A stretch of 64,000 nt of DNA from assembly GCA_042570405.1 (NCBI GenBank), contig JBHPGR010000002.1, positions 5,992-69,991 of the forward strand, read 5' to 3'. The stretch comes from Candidatus Omnitrophota bacterium. GTDB taxonomy: Bacteria; Omnitrophota; Gorgyraeia; Gygaellales; Profunditerraquicolaceae. The translations under genes were made by a program, and so were the position numbers. Shown one piece after another: positions 3,046 to 55,217 of this stretch. How positions within the stretch are numbered: the first letter of the stretch is position 1; every line of letters starts with the position of its first letter. Below the pieces are notes generated by a model. That model was not told the DNA's origin and searched no databases. It worked only from the letters and a program-made list of their open reading frames with translations.

Positions 3046-4657
3046 AGAAATAATCTTCGGTATCATCGGAGGCCTGGGGCTGTTTATTTACGGCTTAAAG
3101 CAGATGAGCGACGGCCTGCATAAGGCAAGCGGCGAGAGGATGCGCCGCATCCTGCACGGGCTTACCGGAGGCCGTTTAAAGGGAGTGTTGGTCGGCACGG
3201 GTATCACCAGCGTAATCCAGTCTTCATCGGCGACAACCGTGATGGTGGTAGGGTTTGTCAACGCCGGACTGATGACCCTGGTGCAGGCATTAGGGGTGAT
3301 ATTGGGTGCCCACATCGGTACCACGATCACCGCCCAGTTGATCGCCTTTAAGCTTACGGATTACGCCCTGCCGATCATCGGCGTGGGGATGCTTTTGATG
3401 CTTATCGGTAGGAGAAAGACCCACAAATACGTCGGTGAATTCCTGCTCGGGTTTGGTATTTTGTTTCTCGGCTTAAGTATCCTGACTACGGTAGTCAAGC
3501 CTTTAGGTCAGTATCCACTCTTTACCGAGATTATGGTCTCTTTTAGCAGGAATCCGCTTTTGGGCGTACTTGCCGCAGCACTCGTTACCGCGGTAGTCCA
3601 GAGCAGCTCTGTGACCACCGGTATGGTGATAAGTCTTGCTATGGCAAATCTAATCGACCTGGGAGCTGCGATACCATTGATCTTTGGTTGTAATATCGGT
3701 ACCTGCGTTACAGCATTGATCGCTTCCATCGGGGTAAGTATCAACGCAAAGAGAGCAGCCTTTGCCCATATTATAATGCGGGTCATCGCGGTAGCTGTAT
3801 TTTTACCGTTTTTGTCTCCGTTTATCAGGCTGGTCAGTTCCACATCTGCCGAGCTACCGCGGCAGATCGCAAACGCCCATACCTTATTTAACGTGATCGC
3901 AACTCTGCTCTTTCTGCCCTTTGTGCGGGTATTCGCCGGATGGCTTACCAGGGTGATCAAAGGGGAAGAGGAGGAGGAGGTCGAGTATCTGCCGAAATAC
4001 CTGGAACCGCACCTATTGAATACTCCGCCTATAGCTATAGAGGCGGCGATCAAGGAGATCATCAGGGCCCTGGAATTGACCCGGAAGATGGTCAGCCTGG
4101 CAATGGAGAGCTTCTTTAAAAATGACCCAAGGGCTTTAGAAGGAGTAACCCGCAGGGAAGAGGCGGTGGATTCATTGAGAGAGGCGATCACCAAGTACCT
4201 GGTCGAGATCATGCAGAGGGAGTTAAGCGCCGATGAATCAAGGAAGATCCCCCCACTATTACATGCGATCAATGATGTGGAGAGGATCGGCGACCACGCC
4301 GAGAATTTAAGGGACCTGGCAGAGCAGAAGATCGAGAACCGCATGCCTTTTTCAAAGGAAGCCGCATCAGAGCTGGAGAAGATGTACGAGGATGTGATCA
4401 AGATGGCTAATTATTCTATCAGCGCGCTGGGGATCAATATCCAGGATGCAAAACTCGTCCTTGAGCAGGAGGCAGTGATCAACGATCTCAGAAACAGTTT
4501 AAAGGATAGCCACACCCGGCGCCTTGAGAAGGGGGATTGTAATGTCCTTTCCGGGGTAGTCTTTCTGGATATAATCAGCAACTTGGAGAAGATCGGCGAC
4601 CACCTCACCAACGTAGCCCAGGCAGTAATCGAGGGCCTGCAGTGGAACGGTAAGTAA
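3038..4657 (+). CDS. Na+/phosphate cotransporter family protein with C-terminal PhoU-like repeats
   Basis: 539 aa. It has a polytopic N-terminal half with duplicated QSSSATT/QSSSVTT Na/Pi-cotransporter motifs. The C-terminal half has two PhoU-like ERIGDHAEN / EKIGDHLTN repeats. Confidence 0.9.
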
Positions 4658-5669: not shown

Positions 5670-6155
5670 ATGGATGAAATACTGGAGATCTTAACAAAAG
5701 ACGCGCGTACGACTGCTGAAGAGATCGCGAAAATGCTTAAGAAGAAGACCCAGACGATAAAAGAGGCGATCAAGAAGTTCGAGAAGTCTGGTGTGATCTT
5801 AAAGTATAAGGCGGTGATCAATAAGGAGATCCTCAAAGATACAAAGAAAGATGTCCGCGCCCTGATCGAAGTAAATATCACTCCGCAAAAGGACCTCGGA
5901 TTCGATAAGATCGCAGAGCGCATCTATTCGTTCCCCGAGGTGGTAAGCTGTTACCTGCTTTCAGGGACGTATGACCTGCTTCTGATCGTCGAAGGAAAAG
6001 ACCTGCATACGGTCTCAAGCTTTGTTGCAGAGAAACTGGCTCCATTAGAGAATGTCAGGAGGACCACCACGCACTTTCTGCTGAAGAAATACAAAGAGGA
6101 CGGGGTGATCTTAAAACACAGGGATGAGAATAAGAGGATAGCGATTAGTTATTAG
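5670..6155 (+). CDS. Lrp/AsnC family transcriptional regulator
   Basis: 161 aa. It has an N-terminal HTH (ILEILTKDARTTAEEIAKML) and a C-terminal AsnC-type ligand-binding domain (VSCYLLSGTYDLLLIV). Confidence 0.85.
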   Translation: MDEILEILTKDARTTAEEIAKMLKKKTQTIKEAIKKFEKSGVILKYKAVINKEILKDTKKDVRALIEVNITPQKDLGFDKIAERIYSFPEVVSCYLLSGTYDLLLIVEGKDLHTVSSFVAEKLAPLENVRRTTTHFLLKKYKEDGVILKHRDENKRIAISY

Positions 6156-6171: not shown

Positions 6172-7323
6172 ATGAAAGAGTACATATCAGGAAAAGTCGG
6201 CCAGATGCAGCCTTCGGGGATCAGGAAGTTTTTTGACCTGGTGCTCGGAATGGAGGATGTGATCTCTTTGGGCGTCGGAGAGCCGGATTTTGTCACCCCC
6301 TGGCAGATCCGGGAGGAGGGGATCTATTCCTTAGAGCAGGGGTTTACCTCCTATACTTCGAATAAGGGGCTGTATAAACTACGCCTTTCTATCAGCCGTT
6401 ACCTGAAGAATAAGTTTGATCTCGAGTACTGCCCTGACGAGGAGATCCTGATCACCGTTGGGGTGAGCGAGGGGATGGATCTGGTCTTGCGTTCGGTGAT
6501 CGATCCCGAAGATAAGATCCTGATCCCTACGCCCGGTTACGTCTCATACGGTCCGCTCACAGAGCTTGCAGGAGGCATTCCCGTCTATATCGATACAAAA
6601 AATGATGATTTTAAATTAACGCCTAAGAACCTAGAGAAGCATATTGATAATAAGACTAAGGCGATCATTTTTAATTACCCGGTGAATCCCACCGGGACAT
6701 CTTACACAAAGAAGGAGCTGGAAGCGCTTAAAAAGGTCTTAGTAAGCAATAAGGTACTTTGTATTTCCGATGAGATCTACGGTGACCTGACCTTTGATTT
6801 TGCGCATACGCCATTTGCAACACTTGCAGGAGCAAAGCCGAACACTCTTTATCTTGACGGATTCTCAAAGTCATACGCAATGACCGGATGGCGCGTGGGT
6901 TTTGCCTGCGGGCCTAAGGAGATCATCGCGGCGATGACCAAGATCCATCAGTACAGCATCATGTGCGTTCCGATAACCTCCCAGATGGCTGCCTGCGAGG
7001 CTCTGCACTCCGGCCGCAGGTCAGTCGAAGAGATGAAGCGTGAATATAAGCGGCGCCGGGAGTTTGTGGTTGATAAGCTGAATGATCTGGAGCTTAGCAG
7101 TAGAAAGCCGGAAGGGACGTTTTATGTCTTTCCATCAATTAAAAATACCGGCATGAATGATCTTGACTTTGCGCAAAAGTTGCTCAAGGAGCAGAAAATC
7201 GCGGTTGTGCCGGGAAGCGCATTTGGAAGCGGGCTTGAAGACCATATCCGTATATCCTATGCCTCAAGCCTGAGTAATCTTAAGGAGGCATTGGCAAGGA
7301 TAGGGAAATTTCTAAAGAGATAA
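6172..7323 (+). CDS. class I/II PLP-dependent aminotransferase (aspartate-aminotransferase-like)
   Basis: 383 aa. It has the PLP-lysine motif FSKSYAMTGWRVGF and the NYPVNPTG motif. The substrate cannot be assigned from sequence. Confidence 0.85.
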   Translation: MKEYISGKVGQMQPSGIRKFFDLVLGMEDVISLGVGEPDFVTPWQIREEGIYSLEQGFTSYTSNKGLYKLRLSISRYLKNKFDLEYCPDEEILITVGVSEGMDLVLRSVIDPEDKILIPTPGYVSYGPLTELAGGIPVYIDTKNDDFKLTPKNLEKHIDNKTKAIIFNYPVNPTGTSYTKKELEALKKVLVSNKVLCISDEIYGDLTFDFAHTPFATLAGAKPNTLYLDGFSKSYAMTGWRVGFACGPKEIIAAMTKIHQYSIMCVPITSQMAACEALHSGRRSVEEMKREYKRRREFVVDKLNDLELSSRKPEGTFYVFPSIKNTGMNDLDFAQKLLKEQKIAVVPGSAFGSGLEDHIRISYASSLSNLKEALARIGKFLKR

Positions 7324-7333
7324 AGGAGCGAGC

Positions 7334-8665
7334 ATGAAGAAGCCGAAAACAAAACAGGATGTGATCAGGTTAGCTAAAAAGGAGAAGGTCCGGTACATCA
7401 GGCTTTGGTTTACCGATGTCCTGGGGTTCCTTAAAGGTTTTACTATAACTATCGATGAGCTGGAGCGCGCGCTCTCTGATGGGATGGGTTTTGACGGCTC
7501 CTCGATCGAAGGCTTTGCGCGGATCGAGGAATCGGATATGACCGCAATGCCGGACCCGACAACTTTTGCGATCCTGCCCTGGGAGTCAAAGGATAAGAAG
7601 GTGGCGCGGATGCTCTGCGATATCTATACGCCTAAGGGAAAGCCATTTGAGATCGACCCGCGTTATGTTTTAAAAAAGAACTTGGCCCGGGCGAAAAATA
7701 AAGGCTTTACCTTTTATGTCGGGCCGGAGCTGGAATATTTTTATTTCAATAATCCCAAGAACACGATCATCCTGGATAAGGGCGGGTATTTTGACTTGAC
7801 TCCGCTGGATCTGGCCCAGAACGTCAGGAATGAAACGGTCAGTGCCCTGGAGGGCTTAGGGATCGTCGTCGAATACAGCCATCATGAAGTCGCCTCCAGC
7901 CAGCATGAGATCGACCTGCGTTACGGCGAAGCCCTGGCGATGGCCGATAATGTGATGACCTACAGGCTGGCGGTAAAGGAGATCGCTTTATCCAAGGGGC
8001 TGCATGCGACCTTTATGCCGAAACCTATATACGGGATAAACGGTTCGGGGATGCACACGCACATGTCATTATTTAAGGGCGCAAAAAACGCTTTTTACGA
8101 TCCTAAAGACAAATATTTCCTTTCAAAAGTGGCTAAGCATTTCATTGCCGGTATCATAAGGCATGCCGCTGAGTTGACAGCGGTGACTAACCAGTGGGTG
8201 AATTCTTATAAGAGGCTGGTCCCCGGATACGAGGCGCCGGTCTATATCTCCTGGGCGCGGATGAACCGTTCGGCCCTGGTGCGCGTTCCAATGACAAAGA
8301 CCGGCAGACAGAAGGCGACCCGCATCGAGTACCGCGCGCCTGACCCTGCCTGCAACCCGTATCTGGCATTTTCAGTATTACTTGCCGCAGGCCTTGAGGG
8401 GATCGAGAAGAAGTATCCTCTGCCTAAGCCGGCAAATGACAATATCTACAAGATGTCAGCTAAAGAGCGGGAGCGCGCAGGGATAAGATCTTTGCCGGAG
8501 GACCTTTTGGAGGCGATTAAGCTTACCGAGAAGTCAAGCCTGGTAAGGAAGGCCCTGGGCGATGAGCTTTTTGACTACTTTATCCGCAATAAGAAGATGG
8601 AGTGGGATGAGTACAAGGCCCAGGTCACCAAGTACGAAATAGACAAATATTTACCGATTCTTTAG
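7334..8665 (+). CDS. glnA: glutamine synthetase type I (443-aa form), copy 1
   Basis: It has GS motifs FDGSSIEGF, GPELEYF, HHEVA..QHEIDLRY, NGSGMHTHMS and NSYKRLVPGYEAP. Confidence 0.93.
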   Translation: MKKPKTKQDVIRLAKKEKVRYIRLWFTDVLGFLKGFTITIDELERALSDGMGFDGSSIEGFARIEESDMTAMPDPTTFAILPWESKDKKVARMLCDIYTPKGKPFEIDPRYVLKKNLARAKNKGFTFYVGPELEYFYFNNPKNTIILDKGGYFDLTPLDLAQNVRNETVSALEGLGIVVEYSHHEVASSQHEIDLRYGEALAMADNVMTYRLAVKEIALSKGLHATFMPKPIYGINGSGMHTHMSLFKGAKNAFYDPKDKYFLSKVAKHFIAGIIRHAAELTAVTNQWVNSYKRLVPGYEAPVYISWARMNRSALVRVPMTKTGRQKATRIEYRAPDPACNPYLAFSVLLAAGLEGIEKKYPLPKPANDNIYKMSAKERERAGIRSLPEDLLEAIKLTEKSSLVRKALGDELFDYFIRNKKMEWDEYKAQVTKYEIDKYLPIL

Positions 8666-52638: not shown

Positions 52639-52839
52639 AGGCGTAAGTTATGTATGGAACTTTCCCGGCTCATAAGCCGCGGGAAAATTCTCTTTGATAA
52701 TTTTCCCGCATTCGCCGGGATTAATTCGCCCAGACAACTTACGTCACTAGCGTTCCGTAAGTTGTGGGCTCATTATCGCACTTATAACTTACTCACACTT
52801 TTAGTGTTCGTAAGTTATGTGCTCATTAAGGAGGTATTG
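52639..52839 (+). repeat. motif-dense structured pyrH-frr spacer (CGTAAGTTRT repeats in both orientations)
   Basis: Direct copies lie at 52642, 52756 and 52809, the last two extended to CGTAAGTTRTG(G)GCTCATTA. Inverted copies are ACAACTTACG (52734-52743) and ATAACTTAC (52784-52792). These give two strong hairpins, at 52734-52765 and 52784-52819. Confidence 0.6.
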
Positions 52840-53400
52840 ATGACTACCAAAGAGATCTTGCATACGGCTGAAGAAAAGATGAAGAAATCGCTGGAATCAG
52901 TAGCCCGCGAATATGCCGAGGTTCGTACAGGAAGGGCGCATCCGGGCTTAGTTGAAGGATTGCATGTAGATTATTACGGGACCCCGACCCTCTTTAAGCA
53001 GTTGGCCTCGATCTCAGTGCCGGATGCACATCTGATCGTGATCCAACCTTGGGATCCGAATGCGATCCCCGAGATGGAGAAGGCGATCATGAAGTCAAAT
53101 ATCGGGATCACGCCCTCCAACGACGGCAAGTTGATCCGCCTGGCTGTACCGCCATTATCCAAAGAGAGGCGGCAGGAGCTGGTGAAATTGGTGCATCAGA
53201 TGAGCGAGGAGGGGAGGATCTCGCTGCGCACGATCAGAAGAGATATCAAGGAGGCGCTGGAGAAGACAGAGAAAGAAAAGAAGATCTCAGAAGATGATAA
53301 ATTCCGCGGCGTTGATTCCCTGCAGAAGATCACTGATAAATACATCTTAAAAATAGAAGAGTTACTAAAGAGCAAAGAGAAGGAGATCCAGGAGTTTTAG
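52840..53400 (+). CDS. frr: ribosome recycling factor
   Basis: MTTKEILHTAEEKMKKSLE... matches the Frr N-terminus. AAGGAGG lies at 52828-52834. The 62-codon upstream extension in the ORF track is non-homologous and lies in the repeat region. Confidence 0.92.
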   Translation: MTTKEILHTAEEKMKKSLESVAREYAEVRTGRAHPGLVEGLHVDYYGTPTLFKQLASISVPDAHLIVIQPWDPNAIPEMEKAIMKSNIGITPSNDGKLIRLAVPPLSKERRQELVKLVHQMSEEGRISLRTIRRDIKEALEKTEKEKKISEDDKFRGVDSLQKITDKYILKIEELLKSKEKEIQEF

Positions 53401-53410
53401 GGCAATATTC

Positions 53411-54259
53411 ATGACAAAGAAATTAGAAGTAAAAATAATTAAAAGATCCAGAAAATTACGTACTAATGGCTTATCTTTTGGGGAAATCTCCTTTATTACA
53501 GGCGTACCAAGAAGCACGCTTTATGGTCACCTAAGAGATATATCCCTAACAGTTGAGCAGAGACATAATTTAGATATTAGAAATAGAGAACGAAATATGC
53601 ATAAGATAAATCCCCGAAAAGATAAATGTCTTGCGGGTAGAGAAATTGTAAAGCCTAGGGCGTGGTCAACTGATTTAGTTCATACTGTAGCTCATTTTAT
53701 GTTTGACGGCAGAGTAAGTGATGATTGTTGTATTTACTATAGTAACAGTAAGTACCAAATCAACCATATGAGAATGCTTTTGCATAAAATTTTTAATGCT
53801 GAACCTAAAGTTCATTCGAGAGATAATAACGTCTATGGGTTGGTTTTCTATCATGTCGAACTCGCTAATTATCTTAAGAAGCGTAAGAAGGAGCTAGTTG
53901 ATTACCTAAACAATGGTGCTTCACGAATGGAAAAGAGGGTATTTTTGAAGGCATTTTTTGACGACGAAGGGAACGTTTTTTATAAAGGTAGTACTCGGCG
54001 AGTACGAGGCTACCAACAATTATCTTCTGTACTGGAACAAATAAAAGATTTACTAAGGGATTTTAGAGTAGAGTGCAAAATTGATAAAAGCAATACCGAT
54101 ATTGAAATTACAGGTCAGAAAAATTTGTTAAACTTTAGCAAAGAGATAAACTTTTCTCCTAAAATCTATATTAACCATAGGAGAAAAAATGGAATTTGGA
54201 AGAAGAGGATTTCTAAGAGCAAGATTTTAGAAGCTTCATTGAAGTCTTATAAGAAATAG
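53411..54259 (+). CDS. free-standing LAGLIDADG-type homing-endonuclease-like protein with N-terminal HTH
   Basis: 282 aa. The second motif FLKAFFDDEGNV is canonical LAGLIDADG-like. A degenerate first motif VAHFMFDGRV lies about 85 aa upstream. The N-terminal LSFGEISFITGVPRSTLYGHL looks like an HTH. The ORF is visibly AT-rich relative to its neighbours. Confidence 0.6.
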   Translation: MTKKLEVKIIKRSRKLRTNGLSFGEISFITGVPRSTLYGHLRDISLTVEQRHNLDIRNRERNMHKINPRKDKCLAGREIVKPRAWSTDLVHTVAHFMFDGRVSDDCCIYYSNSKYQINHMRMLLHKIFNAEPKVHSRDNNVYGLVFYHVELANYLKKRKKELVDYLNNGASRMEKRVFLKAFFDDEGNVFYKGSTRRVRGYQQLSSVLEQIKDLLRDFRVECKIDKSNTDIEITGQKNLLNFSKEINFSPKIYINHRRKNGIWKKRISKSKILEASLKSYKK

Positions 54260-54306
54260 AGGTAAAGTAATTTCGTTCATTGATAATGAGTTAAAGAATT
54301 AATTCT

Positions 54307-54640
54307 GGGCCACTAGCTCATCCGGTAGAGCACCGCCCTCAGCCTAAGGGGGCGCTACTGGGAAACCAGTAGTAGTGAATCTTGTAAATTGCGGGGAAAT
54401 CTGGTGTATTTCAAGATACTCTGTGAATAGAGTAATAATTCTTGAATGCAGATAATCCGCAGCCAAGCCCTTTTTATCAGGAAGGTAAGGGAAGGTTCAA
54501 CGACTATAATCAAGATTCCCTTCATTTTTGAAATTAATAATAAATGGGGGAAATGGAATAGTCTGATCTGTATGGCGACATACAGCTAACACAAATGTTT
54601 AAGGCGGGTGTGCCGTGTTCGAGTCACGGGTGGCCCACCA
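54307..54640 (+). tRNA. tRNA-Lys(UUU) interrupted by a 258-nt group I intron in the anticodon loop
   Basis: The exons are 54307-54339 and 54598-54640. The acceptor is GGGCCAC/GTGGCCC, the D arm GCTC-ATCCGGTA-GAGC, the anticodon stem CCGCC/GGCGG, and the T arm CCGTG-TTCGAGT-CACGG, followed by A-CCA. The spliced anticodon loop is CU|UUUAA. Confidence 0.85.
54340..54597 (+). ncRNA. group I self-splicing intron (tRNA-type, IC3-like), no internal ORF
   Basis: Hand-folded in the canonical order. P1 is 54334-54339/54349-54354 with a U.G pair at the 5' splice site. P2 is 54355-54372 with a GAAA loop. P3 is AATCTTG/CAAGATT (54378/54511). J3/4 is TAAATT. P4 is GCGG/CCGC. P5 is ATCTG/CAGAT, followed by P5a and P5b. 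P6 is CCCTT/AAGGG. P7 is GACTA/TAGTC (54502/54559). P8 is present. P9 is CTGTATG-GCGA-CATACAG. The terminal G is at 54597. Confidence 0.85.
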
Positions 54641-54655
54641 AGTTTCAAGTTTCAA

Positions 54656-54831
54656 GGTTCGAGGCTCTCCCGCCGAAGGCGGGATAAGCTTTTGAGAGCC
54701 GAGAACCTAAAGAGAGGATTCTTAAGGAGAGAAGACCGTTCTCTCCTTAAGATTGCTGTTCTTTGATTGCTAAGGAAGGGGTGACCGCCCCGCAAAGCGG
54801 GGCACCAGAGGGGAAACCATATGGGTTTCCC
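54656..54831 (+). other. cluster of strong GC-rich hairpins between tRNA-Lys and tRNA-Leu (candidate structured RNA)
   Basis: H1 is 54656-54707 (GGTTC..GGCTCTC[CCCGCC-GAAG-GGCGGG]..GAGAGCC..GAACC). H2 is 54720-54752, a 14-bp perfect stem. H4 is 54787-54803 (GCCCCGC-AAA-GCGGGGC). H5 is 54811-54831 (GGGAAACC-ATAT-GGGTTTCCC). There is no ORF. Confidence 0.4.
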
Positions 54832-54930
54832 TATGGGGAGTGAGCGTCAGTAGATAGCGAGATAAGCATAGATACAGCTTTAAGCTTGATTTGTTTACTT
54901 GCAAGTACTGAACCAGCTATAGCGAACGAC

Positions 54931-55012
54931 GCGGACGTGGTGGAATTGGCAGACACGATAGCCTTAGGAGCTATTGGGGCAACCCTTGGGGGTTCAAATC
55001 CCTCCGTCCGCA
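54931..55012 (+). tRNA. tRNA-Leu(UAG)
   Basis: It folds by hand into an 82-nt cloverleaf. The acceptor is GCGGACG/CGTCCGC, the anticodon loop is CTTAGGA, the variable arm is long (TGGGGCAACCCTTG), and the T arm is GGGGG-TTCAAAT-CCCTC. CCA is not encoded. Confidence 0.93.

Positions 55013-55139: not shown

Positions 55140-55217
<78 letters not shown>

Follow-up and report, generated by a model that had tools for sequence, protein, structure and literature searches.

The window analyzed here is a stretch of 64,000 nucleotides (nt) from a Candidatus Omnitrophota bacterium (assembly GCA_042570405.1, contig JBHPGR010000002.1, positions 5,992 to 69,991 of the forward strand). It contains a free-standing gene for a predicted LAGLIDADG endonuclease and, directly downstream, a tRNA-Lys(UUU) gene interrupted by a group I intron; here, we examine these two genes, their relatives, and the way in which they may be connected. 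The open reading frame (ORF) of the LAGLIDADG gene (53411..54259) starts with ATG, encodes 282 amino acids (aa), and is supported by the ORF call, a Pfam match, a structural model, and homologs. It begins 10 nt past the stop codon of frr (52840..53400; ORF call and relatives), which encodes the ribosome recycling factor and is both the conserved upstream neighbor and the last gene of an rpsB-tsf-pyrH-frr run. A 47-nt spacer (54260..54306), which contains TCGTTCATTGA, separates the ORF stop from the 5' end of the tRNA gene. The latter consists of a 5' exon comprising tRNA positions 1-33 and ending in CCCU (54307..54339; P1 pairing, spliced product, and ARAGORN), a 258-nt group I intron between tRNA positions 33 and 34, with G as its last nucleotide (54340..54597; Rfam RF00028 and ARAGORN), and a 3' exon that extends from the anticodon UUU through the encoded CCA (54598..54640; spliced product and match to the intronless allele L153). 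All these features are on the plus strand.

The intron is a full-length match to Rfam RF00028 (54330-54585, 92.5 bits, E=1.5e-23), and ARAGORN, with introns allowed, reports a tRNA-Lys(ttt) with a 258-nt intron, i(34,258). With default settings, the program misses the split tRNA and reports only tRNA-Leu(UAG) and tRNA-Gly(GCC); the intron-permitting mode assigned wrong anticodons in several cases (Val, Ser, Stop, Phe, and Asn), and the boundaries were set by eye and from the spliced product. Joining the exons yields a canonical 76-nt cloverleaf tRNA-Lys(UUU) that is nearly identical to the intronless alleles of relatives, such as L153. In P1, the exon sequence CGCCCU pairs with GGGGCG of the intron, with U.G at the junction. 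The intron contains no ORF and is too short for a homing endonuclease. In an alignment of introns from 14 ORF-bearing and ORF-less loci, compensatory double changes are seen at 32 of the 77 pairs of the consensus, the U.G of the 5' splice site (P1 CCCU/GGGG) is invariant (14/14), and all introns compared end in G. By evolutionary criteria, the intron appears to be a working ribozyme that is under selection in ORF-bearing and ORF-less loci alike.

The predicted LAGLIDADG protein

In Pfam, LAGLIDADG_3 (PF14528) matches residues 175-246 marginally, covering the second motif region only (E=2.6e-5, 24.8 bits against a cutoff of 22.5). No NCBIfam model matches the ORF protein, a direct sequence search of PDB returned nothing useful, and a PDB profile search retrieved I-DmoI only weakly (E ~0.02). 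AlphaFold2, with the family alignment as input, produced a model with a predicted local distance difference test (pLDDT) value of 93.6 and a predicted template modeling (TM) score (pTM) of 0.80, in which two alpha-beta-beta-alpha-beta-beta-alpha units are present in one chain. The first unit consists of helix 87-99, two strands, helix 114-128, two strands, and helix 149-168, and the second of helix 172-186, two strands, helix 205-216, two strands, and helix 236-245. In each unit, the first helix stops at an acidic residue, D99 or E186, and the strand starts from the following glycine, G100 or G187. The resulting D99-G100 and E186-G187 dipeptides are 87 aa apart and belong to motif 1 (VAHFMFDGRV, residues 93-102, 53687..53716 on the plus strand, with the putative catalytic D99 at nt 53705-53707) and motif 2 (FLKAFFDDEGNV, residues 178-189, 53942..53977 on the plus strand, with the putative catalytic E186, in the region of the Pfam match), respectively. 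Across the family alignment (42 sequences, 32-65% identity), the invariant positions are H95, D99, and G100 of motif 1 and F182, F183, D185, E186, and G187 of motif 2. I-DmoI has the same catalytic pair, D from the first motif and E from the second.

At the N-terminus, the model contains a confident bundle of four helices (2-18, 23-30, 34-41, and 48-64; residues 2-64, 53414..53602 on the plus strand) that resembles a helix-turn-helix (HTH) domain. The sequence matches in this region are weak and include a sub-threshold Pfam match to HTH_5 (E=0.005), matches to IclR and PF0610, and, in a profile search, the HTH protein 2lvs (E=0.0011) and the Sleeping Beauty PAI HTH.

Foldseek comparison of the model with PDB ranks the TliVMA intein endonuclease (E=1.4e-9), PI-PfuI, I-DmoI (E ~2e-7, TM 0.66-0.70 relative to the target), and I-Tsp061I at the top, followed by the bI3 maturase (E=2.4e-6), WhiA (E=7e-6 to 2e-5), I-SceI, and I-AniI; the Foldseek probability is 1.00 for I-DmoI, PI-PfuI, I-Tsp061I, I-SceI, and I-AniI. 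Because the fold and the family conservation agree, the LAGLIDADG assignment is solid for both domains, and the protein is predicted to be a monomeric double-motif LAGLIDADG enzyme of the I-DmoI type, with an added N-terminal HTH and with the acidic residues retained at both catalytic positions. It shares the monomeric two-domain fold with I-DmoI and the intein LAGLIDADG_3 (PF14528) enzymes, its best structural matches, but is only 13-18% identical to them, carries the additional HTH of about 65 residues, is free-standing whereas those enzymes are encoded by introns or inteins, and is bacterial rather than archaeal.

The family name of the protein is already known through automatic annotation: an identical NCBI protein, from a metagenome-assembled genome (MAG) of Candidatus Omnitrophota, bears the name 'LAGLIDADG family homing endonuclease'. 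A search of 5.8 billion proteins recovered 138 homologs, the next best of which is only 66% identical, with matches from Patescibacteria reaching 33-40%; precomputed PF14528 assignments exist for nearly all homologs listed.

A reading of this stretch made from its letters (hereafter, the sequence-only reading) had described an ORF 47 nt upstream of an intron-bearing tRNA gene, a group I intron without an ORF of its own, two LAGLIDADG-like motifs about 85 aa apart, and an N-terminal HTH. The ORF call, Rfam, ARAGORN, and the spliced product bear out the gene arrangement; the LAGLIDADG_3 match, the AlphaFold2 model, and Foldseek agree on the fold; and the HTH, for which the sequence matches stay below threshold, corresponds to the confident helical bundle. 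The same reading had inferred a recent acquisition from the AT-richness of the ORF. This AT-richness is real, the GC content being 0.335 for the ORF, 0.492 for frr, and 0.486 over the whole window, but the GC content of the ORF is below that of the flanks in all 80 loci of the family analyzed below (mean -9.8 points) and follows host GC (r=0.84). AT-richness is therefore a property of the whole protein family and gives no sign of recent arrival.

The lower-ranking structural matches to the bI3 maturase, I-AniI, and WhiA suggest an alternative, namely, that this is a domesticated, non-cutting LAGLIDADG/HTH protein that acts either as a trans-acting intron maturase, in the manner of bI3 or I-AniI, or as a WhiA-like regulator of the locus. 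Such a role would be consistent with the HTH domain, a feature shared with WhiA, with the good conservation of the family, and with the tracking of host GC, which suggests long residence. However, WhiA and the bI3 maturase have lost the catalytic acidic residues, whereas in this family, both acidic residues at the catalytic positions are invariant.

Association with tRNA-Lys(UUU) genes and the intron

Scanning one genome per species (185,579 species) for relatives of the ORF yielded 91, of which 80 were kept as loci L001-L080. In nearly all 80, a tRNA-Lys(UUU) gene is directly adjacent to the ORF, on the same strand. The nine loci L001-L009, from MAGs labelled Omnitrophota or Planctomycetia, have the layout of the window, with the tRNA 41-59 nt past the ORF stop and a group I intron of 250-316 nt in the tRNA-Lys(UUU) gene (Rfam 79-110 bits). 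All loci with an ORF of the Omnitrophota type, that is, the window, L001-L009, L092, L115, L118, L159, and L201, contain an intron in the adjacent tRNA, such that the arrangement of an ORF located outside a tRNA gene with an ORF-less intron recurs in 14 further loci. In about 70 Patescibacteria loci, a tRNA-Lys(UUU) gene is found shortly before the ORF; it is complete and intronless in about 65, most of which have the ATG only a few nucleotides past the tRNA 3' end. What the family as a whole keeps as its partner is the tRNA-Lys gene, not the intron. A scan of viral contigs detected no relatives of the ORF, and a phage origin is therefore unsupported.

Several features of the Patescibacteria loci are of separate interest. 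In many of the loci L019-L079, the ATG of the ORF is 0-3 nt past the 3' end of tRNA-Lys, and processing of the tRNA 3' end might release a leaderless endonuclease mRNA; in many of them, too, a convergent gene opens right at the ORF stop (tag, followed by tagctgaacgc...). Three Patescibacteria loci, L010, L022, and L035, contain a different group I intron of about 200-244 nt in the tRNA-Lys(UUU) gene beside the ORF (at 3675-3943, 1413-1700, and, on the minus strand, 3054-3372, respectively). Its insertion point is apparently shifted by one position, to 34/35, and it is similar to the small tRNA introns of the IC3-like kind; the tRNA of L035 is oriented divergently from the ORF.

To sample the locus independently of the ORF and the intron, metagenomes were scanned with the tRNA-Lys 5' exon TAGCTCATCYGGTAGAGCACYRCCCT, which recovered at least 120 loci. 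At least 107 or so contain an intronless tRNA-Lys(UUU), with no ORF match on the contig; frr is directly upstream in at least 99, and tRNA-Leu(UAG) and tRNA-Gly(GCC) are commonly found downstream, as in the window. Among the metagenome loci with a resolved upstream side, at least 92 alleles lack both the intron and the ORF, with 1-250 nt between the frr stop and the tRNA, and thus represent the empty site. At least four alleles (L131, L171, L132, and L144) carry the intron only; the frr genes of L131 and L171 are 78-80% identical to that of the window, and a search for ORF remnants between frr and the tRNA in the intron-only loci found none. At least four alleles carry both intron and ORF (L092, L115, L118, and L159, the last with a frameshifted ORF). 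Among the matches listed, none of the frr-adjacent metagenome alleles combines the ORF with an intronless tRNA, and the association between ORF and intron is significant (Fisher exact p=1.8e-5). Besides the frameshifted ORF of L159, degenerate copies include L078 and L080, in which the high-scoring segment pairs are split.

In a neighbor-joining tree of frr (about 170 residues), the loci with both ORF and intron are scattered among empty ones: the window is the sister of the empty locus L174, L002 of L189, L005 of L108, and L004 of L172, all likewise empty, and L001 groups with the intron-only L171 and the empty L187. The divergences of the ORF, the intron, and frr all correlate (Spearman 0.61-0.72), which is due to the presence of two deep clades. 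The correlations do not separate vertical descent and loss from transfer within clades.

These distributions bear on the domesticated-protein alternative. The ORF and the intron co-diverge (Spearman 0.72), which speaks in its favor. Nevertheless, the intron persists with a conserved structure in L131, L171, L132, and L144, where the ORF is missing, indicating that the protein is not needed; most homologs are located beside an intronless tRNA-Lys, which excludes a general maturase role; and the sporadic occurrence among close relatives, with at least 92 empty sites, together with one frameshifted copy and the flanking orphan tRNA fragments described below, is characteristic of a mobile element rather than a housekeeping gene. 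We consider a domesticated, non-cutting protein unlikely, although a dual role as endonuclease and maturase is possible.

A second alternative takes the protein to be a homing endonuclease that merely neighbors the intron, its target being the tRNA-Lys region or its flank and the intron being an independent resident with no role in immunity or co-mobility. Such independence would fit the fact that the constant partner over two phyla is the tRNA-Lys gene and not the intron, as well as the presence of tRNA-Lys(UUU) group I introns in Actinomycetota, for which no adjacent endonuclease gene has been reported. It would also fit a different LAGLIDADG ORF on the other side of the intron-bearing tRNA-Lys of L132. 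It does not readily account for the co-divergence of ORF and intron, nor for the finding that none of the approximately 15 loci with an Omnitrophota-type ORF lacks the intron and none of the at least 92 intronless alleles contains the ORF (p=1.8e-5).

The L132 locus itself deserves a brief description. Its second, smaller LAGLIDADG_3 gene lies 3' of the intron-bearing tRNA-Lys and runs into tRNA-Leu (about 7035-7619, minus strand); the product of about 195 aa, with the motifs LLASDGNL and GLFDGDGC (Pfam E=5e-9), differs from that of the window ORF. Nothing ORF-like is present between frr and the tRNA in L132, and the intron of L144 is identical to that of L132. Endonucleases of more than one lineage seem to be drawn to the tRNA-Lys locus.

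Orphan tRNA fragments next to the ORF

Alignment of the region upstream of the ORF to the spliced tRNA of the same locus revealed orphan tRNA fragments. L001, L002, L004, L006, and L008 contain the tRNA-Lys 5' exon twice in direct orientation, once on either side of the ORF: the orphan copy is situated past the frr stop and before the ATG, and the functional one is joined to the intron. The orphans are at differing stages of decay. That of L092 covers tRNA positions 1-42 with 42/42 identity, and those of L006 (positions 1-40, 35/40), L001 (1-38, 37/39), L008 (1-36, 34/36), L004 (1-33, 33/33), and L002/L118 (1-29, 28/29) are progressively shorter, down to the exact match of positions 1-26 in L201. 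The ends thus span tRNA positions 26-42, and the least decayed orphan, in L092, ends 9 nt past the 33/34 insertion site and joins 9 nt before the ORF ATG. Across the intron site, this orphan reads CCCT followed by TTTAAGGTG, just as an intronless tRNA-Lys does; the L092 intron starts CAAAATAAG. Because CCCT is followed by TTTAAGGTG rather than CAAAATAAG, the L092 orphan derives from an allele without the intron, in which the break occurred some 9 nt 3' of the insertion site. No orphan was found in the window, L005, L007, L009, or L115.

A mirror image is observed in Patescibacteria, where about 8 of 70 loci have an orphan tRNA 3' fragment, from the T-arm to the acceptor end, directly past the ORF stop (L010, recognized by eye, and L012, L014, L016, L027, L034, L059, and L068, at z=5.7-11.4). 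The fragment often derives from a tRNA-Lys variant other than the resident gene. Under the second alternative, in which the intron is a bystander, these 3' orphans would point to a break elsewhere in the tRNA. In the Omnitrophota-type loci, however, the orphans end at the insertion site or a few nucleotides past it, within positions 26-42, which places the break at the intron site. Taken with the counts of alleles, this makes a simple neighborhood of endonuclease and intron an improbable explanation.

The direct repeats of tRNA fragments around the insert also resemble attL and attR, raising a third alternative, that an island of the integrase type once attached at tRNA-Lys and left the locus as its scar, or else that the ORF was once encoded within the intron and was subsequently displaced. 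For L002 and L004, ARAGORN even draws, formally, an 'intron' of 1.2 kb that extends from the orphan 5' exon and spans the ORF. Yet the insert between the repeats is a single gene of about 0.85 kb, with no integrase; the L092 orphan runs on as intronless tRNA, so the ORF was not carved from an intron; the CCCU of the splice site is kept in only 3/7 orphans; and the scan of viral contigs detected no relatives. An origin by displacement or island integration is, in our judgment, extremely unlikely.

The loci that keep an orphan, with the order orphan exon, ORF, true 5' exon, intron, and 3' exon, could in principle also be viewed as an intermediate stage from which a mobile intron arises. A transcript that begins before the orphan may then have two alternative 5' splice sites for one ribozyme, and splicing from the orphan exon may excise the ORF within an enlarged intron, rendering the ORF functionally intron-encoded. 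The idea that orphans are maintained as splice donors was rejected, given that CCCU is kept in only 3/7, and we find the intermediate state very unlikely; the orphans are probably relics. In another role, which we likewise rate as very unlikely, the orphan could serve as the left homology arm, such that ORF, replacement 5' exon, and intron would home together as one cassette.

Two further observations concern the ends of the ORF region. In the window, TTTTAGGGC (53393-53401), 7 nt before the ATG, matches 8/9 nt of tRNA-Lys positions 33-41, TTTTAAGGC, and is located where the orphans of L006 and L092 end. It was not counted as an orphan of the window, given its overlap with the conserved C-terminal codons of frr (the Phe codon and the stop), and may be a chance match or a vestige of a microhomology deletion. 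In L201 (GCA_017973895.1), the called gene starts from ATG 6001 and encodes 267 aa, but the coding sequence for the conserved N-terminus, VKKLKAKLINKCRNLR, opens with a GTG near 5953, directly past the orphan tRNA fragment (5915-5953); the annotated L201 protein is probably truncated at its N-terminus.

Around these features, the window contains tRNA-Leu(UAG) (54931-55012) and tRNA-Gly(GCC) (55140-55215), both reported by default ARAGORN. The mechanical ORF for frr opens 62 codons before the conserved MTTKEIL start (52654-52839) and overlaps the end of pyrH, and the true start of frr is most likely 52840. The TCGTTCATTGA of the ORF-tRNA spacer (54273-54283) is the window variant of a motif, TTGTTCTTTGA/G, that is conserved in the spacers of related loci, occurring 25-45 nt before the functional tRNA-Lys 5' exon in L001, L003, L005, L007, L008, and L201; it is found upstream of the L001 orphan fragment as well, and a further window variant, CTGTTCTTTGA, is present at 54756-54766. 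This motif may be a tRNA promoter element; across the window, it is not enriched (25 matches to TTGTTCTTTGA compared to 19 expected). The 290-nt spacer between tRNA-Lys and tRNA-Leu (54641-54930) contains several perfect GC-rich hairpins, with a minimum free energy of -121 kcal/mol (z=-7.5 relative to shuffled sequences), and has no match in Rfam; it could consist of processing or terminator hairpins or represent a decayed insert. In L132, the corresponding spacer is occupied by the second LAGLIDADG gene described above.

Probable collaborative homing at a bacterial tRNA gene

The explanation that we consider probable is collaborative homing: a free-standing homing endonuclease would cut the intronless tRNA-Lys(UUU) gene, and the intron would shield its carrier. 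Under this model, the target is the intronless tRNA-Lys(UUU) gene, which the enzyme would cut within the anticodon loop or slightly 3' of it, around tRNA positions 33-42. The 258-nt intron at 33/34 would split this target, rendering immune the only functional tRNA-Lys(UUU) copy seen at the locus, with a normal tRNA produced after splicing. This would explain why the Omnitrophota-type ORF is never found beside an uninterrupted tRNA-Lys, given that the intron splits the proposed recognition sequence. When DNA of the element meets an intronless allele, the enzyme would introduce a double-strand break. Repair with a short tract would copy the intron alone, with the 33-nt 5' exon as the left homology, and repair with a long tract would copy the ORF, the 5' exon, and the intron together. 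If homology to the left of the ORF is missing, the broken 5' half of the recipient gene would be joined beside the ORF and left as an orphan, which the window copy would since have lost. The frameshifted ORF of L159 and the orphans in varied states of decay are signs of the usual homing endonuclease life cycle.

The sequence-only reading had already suggested collaborative homing, and comparison of the frr-tRNA locus among relatives, with its strong linkage, sporadic distribution, and footprints of invasion, together with the fold of the protein, favors this suggestion for the Omnitrophota-type loci. It had also named a finding that would count against it, the ORF in relatives that lack the intron, with no linkage between them. 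The ORF does occur without an intron, in Patescibacteria, although its linkage to tRNA-Lys stays tight, and protection by the intron does not extend to the whole family.

Several observations weigh against collaborative homing or narrow its scope. About 65 Patescibacteria homologs are located immediately 3' of a complete, intronless tRNA-Lys(UUU) gene, and consequently, the intron is not the mechanism of immunity in that subfamily, for which a different target or a different kind of immunity has to be assumed. The Omnitrophota-type and Patescibacteria proteins are only 32-44% identical, and the target of the latter may differ. The logic of the intron as immunity would thus hold only for the Omnitrophota-type subfamily, which includes the window. 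The frr tree is a neighbor-joining tree based on some 170 residues, and the metagenome sample comprises at least 120 loci. Because the divergences of ORF, intron, and frr correlate, the history could be largely one of vertical descent and losses rather than frequent transfer. Within the clade of the window, the ORFs are 57-63% identical compared to 75% for frr; the ORF being more diverged than frr, a very recent spread into the lineage of the window is not apparent. Finally, the window has neither an orphan nor an ORF-bearing relative of more than 66% identity, such that its copy could be old and need not be mobile at present.

Collaborative homing, as defined from two phage systems, involves a free-standing endonuclease and an ORF-less intron with one shared target (PMC3984707). 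The pairs consist of F-CphI and the psbA intron of cyanophage S-PM2, and of mobE and the nrdA intron of Aeromonas phage Aeh1 (PMC3984707). As in these pairs, the cut site at the locus described here would coincide with the intron site, the intron would protect its carrier, and the intron and the endonuclease gene could be inherited together. The phage pairs involve protein-coding genes and HNH or Endo VII-like enzymes, whereas here, the setting is a bacterial chromosome, the target would be a tRNA gene, and the enzyme that presumably cleaves it belongs to the LAGLIDADG type. Also unlike the phage pairs, some relatives carry an orphan 5' exon, and the unit includes a replacement 5' half of the target gene.

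Among phage enzymes, SegB of phage T4 is a free-standing GIY-YIG endonuclease that is encoded in a tRNA gene cluster and cuts within the tRNA gene region. It is thus also free-standing among tRNA genes but differs in being a phage GIY-YIG enzyme that is associated with no intron. Related reading is available on tRNA-cluster endonucleases of the SegB type (PMC13096335).

In bacteria, homing endonucleases of tRNA introns include I-Ssp6803I, a PD-(D/E)XK enzyme from a cyanobacterial tRNA-fMet intron, and the LAGLIDADG_2 proteins encoded inside cyanobacterial tRNA-Arg(CCU) introns (PMC13011429). As in these cases, the enzyme would be directed at a bacterial tRNA gene that contains a group I intron, and there at the anticodon region, but the I-Ssp6803I and LAGLIDADG_2 genes reside within the intron, whereas the gene described here is outside, 47 nt upstream of the tRNA. 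The enzyme also belongs to another family or subfamily, LAGLIDADG_3 with an N-terminal HTH. The tRNA-Lys(UUU) intron itself is not new because group I introns are on record in tRNA-Lys(UUU) genes of Actinomycetota, at position 34/35 and of the IC3 or IB2 type (Table S5 in PMC13011429). These interrupt the anticodon loop of the same tRNA but differ in position (34/35 compared to 33/34 here), phylum, and apparently intron lineage.

A literature search, with most subscription-journal papers outside its reach, identified no free-standing endonuclease gene beside a bacterial tRNA intron and no LAGLIDADG family tied to tRNA-Lys. What appears to be new, judging from sequence, is a chromosomal, tRNA-gene version of collaborative homing with a LAGLIDADG enzyme, the link of the whole family, over two phyla, to tRNA-Lys(UUU), and the footprints in the form of orphan exons. 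A 2026 survey of tRNA group I introns in 4,934 complete genomes, in which endonuclease genes were sought only inside introns longer than 500 bp, concluded that bacterial tRNA introns are largely immobile on the grounds that endonuclease genes are rare within them (PMC13011429). The present locus qualifies this conclusion, in that an endonuclease gene located beside the tRNA is missed by a survey of intron interiors (PMC13011429).

An enzyme family that tracks one tRNA gene over two phyla would provide new meganuclease specificities that have diversified in nature. If the orphan indeed serves as a homology arm, the cassette would be able to home into any intronless tRNA-Lys gene, even across species without shared flanks. 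More generally, how self-splicing introns and homing endonuclease genes first met is an old open question, for which the collaborative homing model rests on two phage examples. The tRNA-Lys locus offers a natural series of states at one site, namely, empty, intron only, gene and intron, gene and intron with an orphan exon, and decayed gene, and with this series, simple assays of cleavage and splicing can put the model to the test.

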